Virus record (IMG/VR): IMGVR_UViG_3300037384_000074
Span: 84,112 to 136,484 of that record
Origin: a virus
Taxonomy: Duplodnaviria; Heunggongvirae; Uroviricota; Caudoviricetes
Direction: 5' to 3' (one strand)
DNA: 52,373 nt
A program made the translations under genes and the position numbers. Below the pieces are notes generated by a model. The model saw only the letters and a program-made list of their open reading frames with translations, was not told where the DNA came from and searched no databases. This document shows, in pieces, positions 26,037 to 28,992 of the stretch. How positions within the stretch are numbered: position 1 is the stretch's first letter; the number at the start of each line of letters is the position of its first letter.

Positions 26037-26050
26037 ACGTCTCTTCTCAG

Positions 26051-26138
26051 CGGAGGGTAGGCAGAATCGAACTCCTGGCCACTTAAGGCTCCAGCGGTTT
26101 TCAAGGCCGCGTGCACATCCCCGGTACAATTACCCTCC
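26051..26138 (-). tRNA. tRNA-Ser(UGA), 8/4-like, inside extended flanking stem
   Basis: GGAGGGTA/TACCCTCC, CTTGAAA loop, long V arm, no encoded CCA. Confidence 0.75.
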
Positions 26139-26200
26139 GCTCAGAAGAGCTATATCTAGGTGAGCAGAGCACTGCTCTATAGTAGCCTAGTCCACTTTAA

Positions 26201-26894: not shown

Positions 26895-27227
26895 TTAATT
26901 CCTCACAAAATAGGTTATCGTGCGAATTTCTCGGTCAGATCTCGAATCTGGCTCGAGCTTTCTATACACCTTTTCAGCATCAGTCAACGAATCTCGTGAA
27001 TTGATATTACCCACGAATCCATATTTAGGCATCTTGGTGAATTCACCAGACGAATTATATAATACACGCTTGAGACTAGCATATTCAAATGGAAAATCAA
27101 GTGCAAAGGTTTCTAGCTTTGCTTCGTCGATCATAAACACATTTGAATAATATTTTCGAGGAGTATTATCCGAGTCCCACTTACAAGGAATCTGTTCAGT
27201 TACCTTGAAAATAATAGGCTCACGCAT
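26895..27227 (-). CDS. Hypothetical protein
   Basis: Coupled to upstream ORF. Confidence 0.55.
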   Translation of the reverse strand: MREPIIFKVTEQIPCKWDSDNTPRKYYSNVFMIDEAKLETFALDFPFEYASLKRVLYNSSGEFTKMPKYGFVGNINSRDSLTDAEKVYRKLEPDSRSDREIRTITYFVRN

Positions 27228-27852
27228 GGATCACATTGTGGTCGAGATCGAAGCCAAGATAATTGCGAACATATCGGAACAGAGTAGACATCGAGTCCAC
27301 TTCATATGAACCGAAGTTCTTGCCACGAGGTGAATGTGTCGGATTGCCGATCACTGCCATGTAAGCATCGTTATGGATCTTATGAGGAACGAAAATATCA
27401 CCCATCGATCGTACGATGAACTCAACCTTGTCCTGAATCTTGGCAATTTTCATTGCAGCAACGTTGAACTTCTTGTTCCATCCATGGGCCGCCTTACTCT
27501 TGCCATACTCACCCTTGACATACGCTCGCTCGCGACCCACGAACATCCAATCATTGTCAGGCATCTGATTGAGTAGGTCCATTTTGGCTTTAGCTGCACT
27601 CTCAGAGTCCGGATAGACCTCTGCGATTTCAGATCGCTCCCAACCCTTATAATCGGTGTTGATCAGAGCCATCATAAAGCCGCCAATACTGGCTTTGCCT
27701 TCGCCATTCTTAATCTTAGCGTATTCGCTTTTGGCTCTTCCATAGTTTGCCCTAAGCGAACTCGATATTTCGAACTTCGGGCCTACGTTATATCCTCCGA
27801 TATAATAGAGCTTGAATTCATTGTGGGTGTATAGAACGAGCTTCTGTTCCAT
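27220..27852 (-). CDS. Hypothetical protein
   Basis: SD AAGGAG upstream. Confidence 0.65.
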   Translation of the reverse strand: MEQKLVLYTHNEFKLYYIGGYNVGPKFEISSSLRANYGRAKSEYAKIKNGEGKASIGGFMMALINTDYKGWERSEIAEVYPDSESAAKAKMDLLNQMPDNDWMFVGRERAYVKGEYGKSKAAHGWNKKFNVAAMKIAKIQDKVEFIVRSMGDIFVPHKIHNDAYMAVIGNPTHSPRGKNFGSYEVDSMSTLFRYVRNYLGFDLDHNVIHA

Positions 27853-28018
27853 ATCGACTCCTTAAATATAGGGAGCTCAGCGCTCCACCTATTAACATGA
27901 TTGCCAGAGCATAATCCGTTAGCACACTCATGAAATCAACGGTAAGTGCCAGAAAAATCCCAACAAAAATATACCACCCTAGTGGTACAGGATTTGGATC
28001 CATGATGTTCTCTAAGGT

Positions 28019-28112
28019 TGGTGGCTATGCTAGGAATCGAACCTAGGCCGCGCCCTAATCCGGGGCATACCTCGTTTATAAAACGAGCGCACTACCATTA
28101 TGCTACATAGCT
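28019..28112 (-). tRNA. tRNA-Ile(UAU) with long variable arm
   Basis: CTCGT-TTTATAA-ACGAG, 24-nt V region with GCCC/GGGC stem, CCA. Confidence 0.75.
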
Positions 28113-28122
28113 AAAAAGAATT

Positions 28123-28280
28123 TGGATCCGCCTCGAGGATTCGAACCTCAAAAATAATGGCATAGATCGGGAGGCTGGACTCGAACCAACATAACCTTCA
28201 CGGTCTCTGCAATCAGAATGCAGGATGTTACCATTACACCACTCCCGATCTATGCCATCACAATATTCCACCAAGGCGGA
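28123..28280 (-). ncRNA. tRNA-like shell (acceptor + T arm + CCA) enclosing another tRNA
   Basis: TCCGCCT/AGGCGGA-T-CCA, TGAGG-TTCGAAT-CCTCG; anticodon arm replaced by a long stem holding tRNA-Gln. Confidence 0.6.
28166..28248 (-). tRNA. tRNA-Gln(CUG) with long variable arm, nested
   Basis: TCGGGAG/CTCCCGA, CTGCA-TTCTGAT-TGCAG, GTTGG-TTCGAGT-CCAGC; followed by CTA not CCA. Confidence 0.72.
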
Positions 28281-28284
28281 TCAA

Positions 28285-28374
28285 TGGTGGGTTTTGAGGG
28301 AATTGAACCCATCGCCACCCTTCTGTCTATTATCAAGGCAACCGTTTTACAGACGGCCGACAGAGACAGAACCC
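28285..28374 (-). tRNA. D-armless tRNA-Tyr(GUA)-like RNA
   Basis: GCCGT-CTGTAAA-ACGGT, TTCAATT loop, ACCA end; no D stem, long V region. Confidence 0.6.
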
Positions 28375-28382
28375 ATTGTTAT

Positions 28383-28811
28383 TTATAGCGTATATATCAC
28401 GAAGACAACATTATATTTGTCTTCAATCTCACAGTAAATTGGCTCCACTTCTTCCCACGTTAATCCACCAAGCCCACATCCAATCTTAGGACTTGCGATT
28501 ACTGTAGCGAATGTACTCTCGATAAAATCGACGAGAGCGTCGTAAATCCATTCCACCTGAGCATATTGACCGATAAGACCATAACCTGACTGGGTTAATA
28601 GATTCCCAATCACGTATCCTCTTTCGTCATGCGCAATTATCGCTTGACCAAGAGCTTTGGTCTTATATTCTGATATATATTGGGTATACGCGTTAGGAAA
28701 CGCCTGGCGGATAGCCTTCGCGACTCCCTTATTGAACACACCTTTATCATTGCAACCATGCACAATGAATTCAAGATGAGTGTTGGTGATATCTCCAGAA
28801 AAATATTCCAT
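28383..28811 (-). CDS. Macrodomain (ADP-ribose binding/hydrolase) protein
   Basis: GDIT, IVHGCN..G.F.KGVAKAI...FP, SPKIGCGLGGL.W. Confidence 0.92.
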   Translation of the reverse strand: MEYFSGDITNTHLEFIVHGCNDKGVFNKGVAKAIRQAFPNAYTQYISEYKTKALGQAIIAHDERGYVIGNLLTQSGYGLIGQYAQVEWIYDALVDFIESTFATVIASPKIGCGLGGLTWEEVEPIYCEIEDKYNVVFVIYTL

Positions 28812-28992
28812 AGATTATATCACAATTAATGTGAGCGCTAAAGAAACCAGCACCAACATTATAACAAGCCTCCAAGTAGCAAGCCTCATAACAATCCCCT
28901 GACTCAGCTCGTTTCAATATCTTCATAATCGAAGAAGAATGAACTGAGCTCGAAAATGATTATCACTCCCAATACCATTACTACAAGGTAAA

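Follow-up and report, generated by a model that had tools for sequence, protein, structure and literature searches.

A tRNA-Gln(CUG) enclosed in a tRNA-like shell is encoded on the minus strand at positions 28123–28280 of the window, that is, of the whole 52,373-nt stretch of DNA analyzed here. We consider it likely that this arrangement arose when a foreign tRNA-Gln replaced, in place, a resident tRNA-Gln of identical anticodon, with the shell being a leftover of the resident gene rather than a designed carrier. The replacement was probably associated with a nuclease, and the leftover probably still directs RNase P and 3′-end processing. The window comes from an uncultured T4-like phage, the IMG/VR record of which is 136 kb long; 16 tRNA genes were recognizable in this record, and the inner tRNA is its sole tRNA-Gln. 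The nested locus is the middle member of a three-RNA unit, where it is preceded by a Tyr-like RNA (28285–28375, minus strand) and followed by a tRNA-Ile(UAU) (28019–28112, minus strand). A putative sigma-70-like promoter upstream of this unit (28410–28438, minus strand) was assigned by a consensus match only, at 10/12 positions, and the same applies to a terminator-like hairpin followed by a T run past the tRNA-Ile (27970–27989, minus strand; consensus match only). The genes flanking the unit are the macro-domain gene P0001 upstream, and P0002, the family of which is unknown, downstream.

The original prediction described the nested layout, and all its elements were found in this region, on the minus strand. 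The inner tRNA-Gln (28248–28165, 84 nt), with the anticodon CUG at 28216–28214, was called by ARAGORN as tRNA-Gln(ctg), and its cloverleaf was also assigned by Rfam to RF00005 with 51.4 bits, which is above the gathering score of 29. As predicted, this tRNA has a long variable arm, consisting of a 4-bp stem and a 5-nt loop, and is not followed by an encoded CCA; its acceptor end contains the U1–A72 pair and the discriminator U73. A repeat search recovered the expected perfect inverted repeat, with two arms of 17 nt (28157–28173 and 28242–28258), which are 100% complementary to each other and separated by 68 nt, and its inner 7 bp are indeed the acceptor stem of the tRNA-Gln. Outside the acceptor stem the repeat forms a clamp, in which a 10-nt leader extending the inner acceptor stem (5′ arm, 28249–28258) faces a 10-nt trailer that starts from the inner discriminator U (3′ arm, 28157–28166). 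Three added pairs, G·U, U–A, and G·U, bring the clamp helix from 17 to 20 bp, and this GUG/UAU pairing behind the 20-bp clamp is present both in the minimum free energy (MFE) fold and in the count of leader/trailer extensions. For that count, 46 ARAGORN-called tRNAs from the genome of the window, its relatives, and T4 were compared; the pairing past the acceptor stem extended over 13 bp in the inner tRNA-Gln and over 0–2 bp in all others.

The outer acceptor stem UCCGCCU/AGGCGGA was found with 28280–28274 paired to 28133–28127, and it is followed by the discriminator U (28126) and by the CCA sequence (28125–28123), in agreement with the prediction. The outer T arm, UGAGG-UUCGAAU-CCUCG at 28150–28134, is also present, but the description of this arm as perfect did not hold, because its stem consists of four Watson–Crick pairs and one U·G, which is the first pair of the stem. 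The outer part contains neither a D stem nor an anticodon arm; it gave no separate Rfam hit as an RF00005 tRNA, and the core is absent in the alignment. The nested fold is far beyond chance. The MFE of the 158-nt RNA was −72.8 kcal/mol (z = −6.6), and none of 200 shuffled sequences was as stable. A hand-written nested structure had an energy of −67.3 kcal/mol, and it deviated from the MFE fold only around the outer T arm. Sub-threshold Rfam matches, which were to SpF41, a miRNA, and mascRNA, were at chance level only. The tRNA-like domain of a tmRNA was considered and rejected, as the shell has a C3:G70 pair and not the G3:U70 alanine pair, and ARAGORN reported no tmRNA; the Rfam scores for tmRNA were only 6.9 and 10.5 bits, and they were located elsewhere in the region.

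Homologues of P0002 and P0001 served as the route to related metagenomic contigs. The Logan contig L011 is identical to the window (100%) over 5277 nt, and in the ENA contig L003, with a P0002 homologue of 98% protein identity, the nest differs by one base, which is located in the loop of the variable arm. Hence, the nested allele is present in three independent assemblies, which are the window, L011, and L003, and its occurrence on independent Logan and ENA contigs shows that it is not an assembly artefact. The carriers of the nest belong to one lineage only, and they are found in two states, with and without a nuclease gene. Four further contigs (L004, L005, L006, and L012) represent a sister lineage, in which the P0002 homologue has 69% protein identity and the DNA is about 66–72% identical. 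The order of genes in the sister lineage is the same as in the window (macro-domain gene, Tyr-like RNA, tRNA-Gln, tRNA-Ile, P0002 homologue), and the slot between the Tyr-like RNA and the tRNA-Ile(UAU) is occupied there by an ordinary, 75-nt-long tRNA-Gln(CUG). Annotated tRNA-Gln genes of Streptomyces, Mycobacterium, and Sinorhizobium phages can be aligned to the L004 gene along nearly all of its length, which indicates that the L004 gene is a normal tRNA-Gln, and the inner tRNA of the nest gave only short generic matches to cultured phages.

The alignment of the 75-nt gene with the shell showed that the first 8 nt (8/8) and the last 27 nt (27/27) are identical, as are the spacers around the slot, of 4 nt before and 6 nt after it. 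The 5′ remnant (28273–28280) corresponds to nucleotides 1–8 of the gene in all four contigs of the sister lineage, that is, to the 5′ strand of the acceptor stem, UCCGCCU, and U8. The 3′ remnant (28123–28149) contains the T stem from G50 and the T loop (GAGG-UUCGAAU-CCUCG), the 3′ strand of the acceptor stem (AGGCGGA), the discriminator U73, and CCA. Between these two remnants, the window has lost about 40 nt of the core of the old gene, which comprised the D arm, anticodon arm, and variable loop, and has a segment of ∼123 nt instead. This segment consists of 14 nt of linker, 102 nt of clamp and inner tRNA, and 7 nt of U-rich linker. The 14-nt linker (GGUGGAAUAUUGUG, 28259–28272) is absent from the L004 gene and came with the insert; it provides no D stem, and its last 3 nt can lengthen the clamp. 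The U-rich linker has the sequence UAUUUUU (28150–28156), and its final U, which is base 1 of the outer T stem, is aligned with a C in L004.

Because these ends and spacers are identical to those of an intact gene at the equal position in the sister lineage, the shell is, on the evidence of the alignment, composed of the two surviving ends of a resident tRNA-Gln(CUG) gene, and the same comparison indicates that the intact 75-nt state is ancestral. This base-for-base match bears out what had been put forward as a fallback, namely a tRNA inserted into another tRNA. The first choice of the original prediction, in which the shell serves specifically to carry or store the inner tRNA or acts as a two-headed decoy, received no direct support; the shell is a remnant, and it is split by 556 bp in L003. 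The identity to L004 was 100% for the shell ends, 77%–79% for the tRNA-Ile and the Tyr-like RNA, and 95%–97% for the tRNA-Asn and tRNA-Ser(GCU). The complete identity of the shell ends may reflect continuing selection on the shell. Against a present use of the shell are the high identity of the tRNA-Asn and tRNA-Ser(GCU), its splitting in L003, and the chance that the insertion is recent.

The sequence of L003 contains a 556-bp insert, which follows the U run of the linker and precedes the AGGTTCGAATCC sequence of the old T arm. In the alignment this site corresponds to 28148–28150 of the window, with G28149 replaced, and it coincides exactly with the border of the GGTTCGAATCC motif of the T arm. 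The inserted gene, P0007 (L003:5387–5950, minus strand), is on the strand opposite to the nest, so that the shell is split by an antisense nuclease gene, one pair of the T stem is broken, and the stop codon of the gene lies within the T arm of the inner tRNA. The 187-aa P0007 protein contains, according to Pfam, an N-terminal HTH_7 domain (E = 1e-7) and an HNH domain (PF01844, E = 1e-4), and no GIY-YIG domain. It is of full length when compared to its homologues, and the closest database relatives are merely 45%–47% identical. No homologue of P0007 was found in the genome of the window (G000), and L011 also has no gene at this site. The fact that the window keeps the ancestral G in the T stem suggests that the HNH gene arrived later, at an already nested site; from the compared sequences it looks like a second event, rather than the vehicle of the first insertion. 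Averaged over each of the two sides of the HNH gene, the window and L003 are 98.1% and 92.8% identical, respectively, with a profile that is patchy on both sides. This break was considered as a proof of homing and was downgraded, as the sliding-window profile is patchy, and it would at most hint weakly at homing. In the wider comparison of these two contigs, the identity dips to 64%–87% at 27000–27300 and to 89%–92% at 28650–28950 of the window, while it is 98%–100% elsewhere, and such patchy drops mark the region as a recombination mosaic. A difference in length is also seen for the macro-domain gene, which encodes 142 aa in the window and 163 aa in L003.

One of the closest known systems is that of T4 SegB, a free-standing GIY-YIG homing endonuclease of the T4 tRNA cluster, which recognizes the GGTTCRANTCC motif of the T arm and drives the inheritance of the tRNA region (PMC2330249). 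More generally, nuclease genes often mark the boundaries of exchange between phages (PMC10448857). The resemblance consists in the T4-like tRNA cluster, in a nuclease gene which, as in a SegB-like cassette, is present or absent at one site between close relatives, and in the insertion in L003, which adjoins the GGTTCRANTCC motif recognized by SegB. In the SegB system, neighboring tRNA sequence is transferred together with the nuclease gene during homing. On the other hand, P0007 is a putative HTH-HNH nuclease and not a GIY-YIG one, and the window itself has no nuclease; also, the SegB system as described includes no complete substitute tRNA within the gene that is broken, which is the striking feature of the nest. 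We regard the nest as a probable case of nuclease-associated turnover in phage tRNA clusters.

In the explanation that we prefer, an ordinary class-I tRNA-Gln(CUG) was once located between the Tyr-like RNA gene and the tRNA-Ile(UAU), and, as the comparison shows, its core was overwritten by a different tRNA-Gln(CUG), which has a long variable arm, no CCA, and a leader/trailer clamp. The first 8 and the last 27 nt of the old gene survived and, still able to pair, form the shell. The most likely way of arrival of the insert would be the repair of a nuclease-initiated double-strand break or homing within the tRNA cluster. The insert would have persisted by supplying the decoding function that its insertion destroyed; that it has the same anticodon as the overwritten gene and is the only tRNA-Gln in the record suggests that it was tolerated as a substitute.

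The acceptor/T minihelix, T loop, discriminator, and CCA are sufficient for bacterial RNase P and 3′ trimming. As the shell keeps a 12-bp minihelix of this kind together with the T loop, discriminator, and CCA, RNase P would be expected to cleave the operon transcript at the former +1 position, and trimming to the old CCA would then give a 158-nt species, which likely exists at least as an intermediate. The inner tRNA would be freed by a cut in the 17–20-bp clamp by host RNase III, which is the obvious candidate, or by a similar enzyme, and it would subsequently undergo RNase P cleavage, 3′ trimming, and CCA addition. No RNase III gene was found in the phage record, which, like the paired state of the inner leader, speaks against this pathway. 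Because sequestration of the leader blocks RNase P (PMC7897497) and the inner leader is fully paired, the cut in the clamp is probably needed first. The phage also has a 431-aa candidate ORF of the CCA-adding type, with a PolyA_pol match (PF01743, 53.5 bits) at G000:C1:44814–45221, outside the window, which would be relevant to its CCA-less tRNA genes.

A clamped tRNA is also found elsewhere in this phage group, as the well-formed tRNA-Ser(UGA) of L004 is enclosed in a similar leader/trailer helix, the arms of which are conserved in the window, and by analogy to this tRNA the clamp is compatible with function. In a pattern scan, the chromosomal tRNA-Gln(CUG) genes of many Verrucomicrobiaceae shared the D arm and the CUG anticodon loop with the inner tRNA. 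This fits a real, host-adapted tRNA-Gln, and the similarity is a possible clue to the host of the phage or to the source of the tRNA. The long variable arm has no counterpart in the tRNA-Gln(CUG) of Verrucomicrobiaceae. The pattern covered 28231–28213 of the window (minus strand), and the matches included Prosthecobacter and Haloferula.

A more far-reaching proposal, which we hold only tentatively and regard as rather doubtful, is that selfish cassettes enter the tRNA clusters of phages and replace tRNAs there, whereby a clamp-armed isoacceptor, with or without a homing nuclease, destroys the resident tRNA gene and becomes indispensable because it has the same anticodon. Owing to the shell and the clamp, maturation would then have to proceed in two steps, with a stable 158-nt tRNA-in-tRNA in between, which could be used to time or protect the supply of tRNA-Gln, for example against tRNA-targeting host nucleases. 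It is somewhat less probable that the composite has been exapted as a whole, with the 158-nt tRNA-in-tRNA itself as the functional product, which would store or meter tRNA-Gln or decoy a tRNA-binding host factor. Several properties of the shell would be consistent with such a role, as it retains a minihelix of 7 + 5 bp, a canonical T loop, U73, and CCA, has a gap of 5 nt where the variable loop would sit, is part of a very stable fold, and has ends that are 100% identical to those of a lineage which is otherwise only ∼70% identical. There are also RNAs of similar design that persist in cells, because T4 rnaC, in which a canonical T arm and acceptor-like ends surround long hairpins, accumulates (PMC3014915, PMC9697503), and engineered tRNA-scaffold chimeras are stable (PMC3753655, PMC3401473). 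However, the shell is demonstrably a remnant, in L003 it is interrupted by the 556-bp antisense endonuclease gene with the loss of one T-stem pair, its conservation is confined to one lineage, and it has C3:G70 together with U73. The latter combination is a misfit to the acceptor-end identity elements of the synthetases that charge tRNAs without reading the anticodon.

We find it distinctly unlikely that the repeat works at the level of DNA, with its 17-bp arms as the terminal inverted repeats of a non-autonomous mobile element (a MITE-like or hairpin-ended cassette with a tRNA) and with the RNA helix as a side effect. The same applies to a variant of this explanation, in which the arms were produced by a template switch (quasipalindrome) that started from the repeat of the acceptor stem. 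The pairing of the arms is perfect and includes no G·U within the 17 bp, as would be expected for a young repeat formed in DNA. However, the element is present in a single copy in the genome, and no other copy was detected in the scanned collections; moreover, a clean target-site duplication is absent, and the event was a replacement with a loss of ∼40 nt rather than a simple insertion. The conservation of the tRNA-Ser(UGA) clamp between lineages that are ∼70% identical also points to use at the RNA level; the clamp may be a helix for RNA processing. Even less probable is a dead locus, in which both the shell and the inner tRNA would be debris and the phage would make no working tRNA-Gln. This would agree with the fully paired leader, the lack of an encoded CCA, the long variable arm, which is unusual in tRNA-Gln, and the neighboring Ser(UGA)-like gene of the window, which was missed by ARAGORN and Rfam, but it is at odds with the perfect cloverleaf (51 bits), with the location of the sole change between the window and L003 in the loop of the variable arm, with the anticodon, which equals that of the replaced gene, and with the predicted gene for a CCA-adding-type enzyme. 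Practically no weight can be given to an intron-like or split tRNA, in which removal of the insert would restore a tRNA, because, even though the insert is at the usual position of tRNA introns, its excision leaves neither a D arm nor an anticodon arm. A search for a tRNA intron using ARAGORN with the intron option called only the inner tRNA-Gln and the tRNA-Ile, and nothing for the outer part.

In a full-text survey of the literature on nested, interrupted, or replaced tRNA genes this arrangement was not described, and the claim that there is no described equivalent holds within the literature searched, with T4 species 1 RNA and engineered scaffolds as close analogues. The T4 species 1 RNA (rnaC), the role of which is unknown (PMC3014915, PMC9697503), is similar in that it belongs to a T4-type tRNA cluster and that its canonical T arm and acceptor-like ends enclose long hairpins, which occupy the positions of the D and anticodon arms. 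It differs in that its core is not a tRNA and its acceptor-like stem is imperfect, while the shell of the nest can be traced to a known tRNA gene. The T arm of rnaC (L015:1409–1547, minus strand) has the sequence CCGGG-UUCGAAU-CCCGG, and the terminal acceptor-like pairing is imperfect. No T4 match was obtained when the region was compared by blastn to a phage collection that contains T4, and by eye the two RNAs share only the generic T loop. It may be that rnaC, too, is what remains of a tRNA gene after its core was overwritten. In engineered tRNA scaffolds, an RNA replaces the anticodon arm and makes use of the processing and stability of host tRNAs, and their topology is that of the 158-nt RNA (PMC3753655, PMC3401473). 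These scaffolds are, however, man-made, they keep the D arm, and their cargo is not a tRNA that needs later release. Integrative elements that target tRNA genes bring along a duplicated 3′ segment, by which the gene hit by the insertion is made complete again. The likeness to such elements is that incoming DNA hits a tRNA gene and compensates the damage, but the nest has neither an integrase nor att-type direct repeats, and the whole tRNA is supplied anew.

If the replacement took place as proposed, the locus would provide a dated and base-resolved case of a phage tRNA gene exchanged for a structurally different isoacceptor without a functional gap, for which the “before,” “after,” and “after plus nuclease” alleles are all at hand. 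Phage tRNAs are now viewed as counter-measures against tRNA-cutting host nucleases (PMC10264068, PMC11464382, PMC13096335), which makes a route for swapping variant tRNAs relevant to this arms race. The locus also suggests a mundane origin of tRNA-shaped stable RNAs, such as T4 species 1 RNA, as the shells of tRNA genes with overwritten cores.

No donor of the inner tRNA or of the clamp came to light in searches that covered IMG/VR, JGI metagenomes, GTDB genomes, and cultured phages, which speaks against the preferred explanation. The exact and degenerate patterns for the 3′ part of the inner tRNA, the 3′ end of the shell, and the anticodon arm with the long variable region gave no matches in IMG/VR, JGI metagenomes, and GTDB. 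A looser pattern of the D arm and anticodon loop returned only ordinary class-I tRNA-Gln, mostly of Verrucomicrobiaceae, and six viral contigs, which contained no clamp and no nest. When proteins were used as the starting point, P0001 alone as a query matched nothing in IMG/VR, an alignment of the P0002 family led to two distant IMG/VR records without tRNA genes, the relatives of P0005 and P0006 had no tRNA-Gln at the site, the surroundings of the HNH homologues gave no further information, and the neighborhood of the macro gene in Sinorhizobium phage phiM12 contained no tRNA genes. Using megablast and blastn, no close DNA relatives were detected among cultured phages, and the only partial match was between the tRNA-Ile and Lactobacillus phage LpeD.

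The RNAs located near the nest were also compared between the lineages. The Tyr-like RNA, which corresponds to L004:2964–3054, lacks a D arm and has a GUA loop and an ACCA end. It is 79% identical to its counterpart in the sister lineage, with several paired changes in the long-range stem and the anticodon stem, and these make it look like a real structured RNA. The tRNA-Ser(UGA) of L004 (L004:5139–5252) has an encoded CCA and an 11-bp leader/trailer helix. In its window counterpart (26041–26149, minus strand) the clamp arms are conserved, while the body has 66% identity with gaps, and this extent of divergence explains why it was not called by ARAGORN and Rfam. All three lineages have retained the tRNA-Ile(UAU) with its long variable arm (28019–28112 on the minus strand of the window, L003:6025–6118, and L004:3146–3241). 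The acceptor stem of this tRNA contains a compensatory change between the window and L003, and the stretch that it shares with Lactobacillus phage LpeD is 75% identical.
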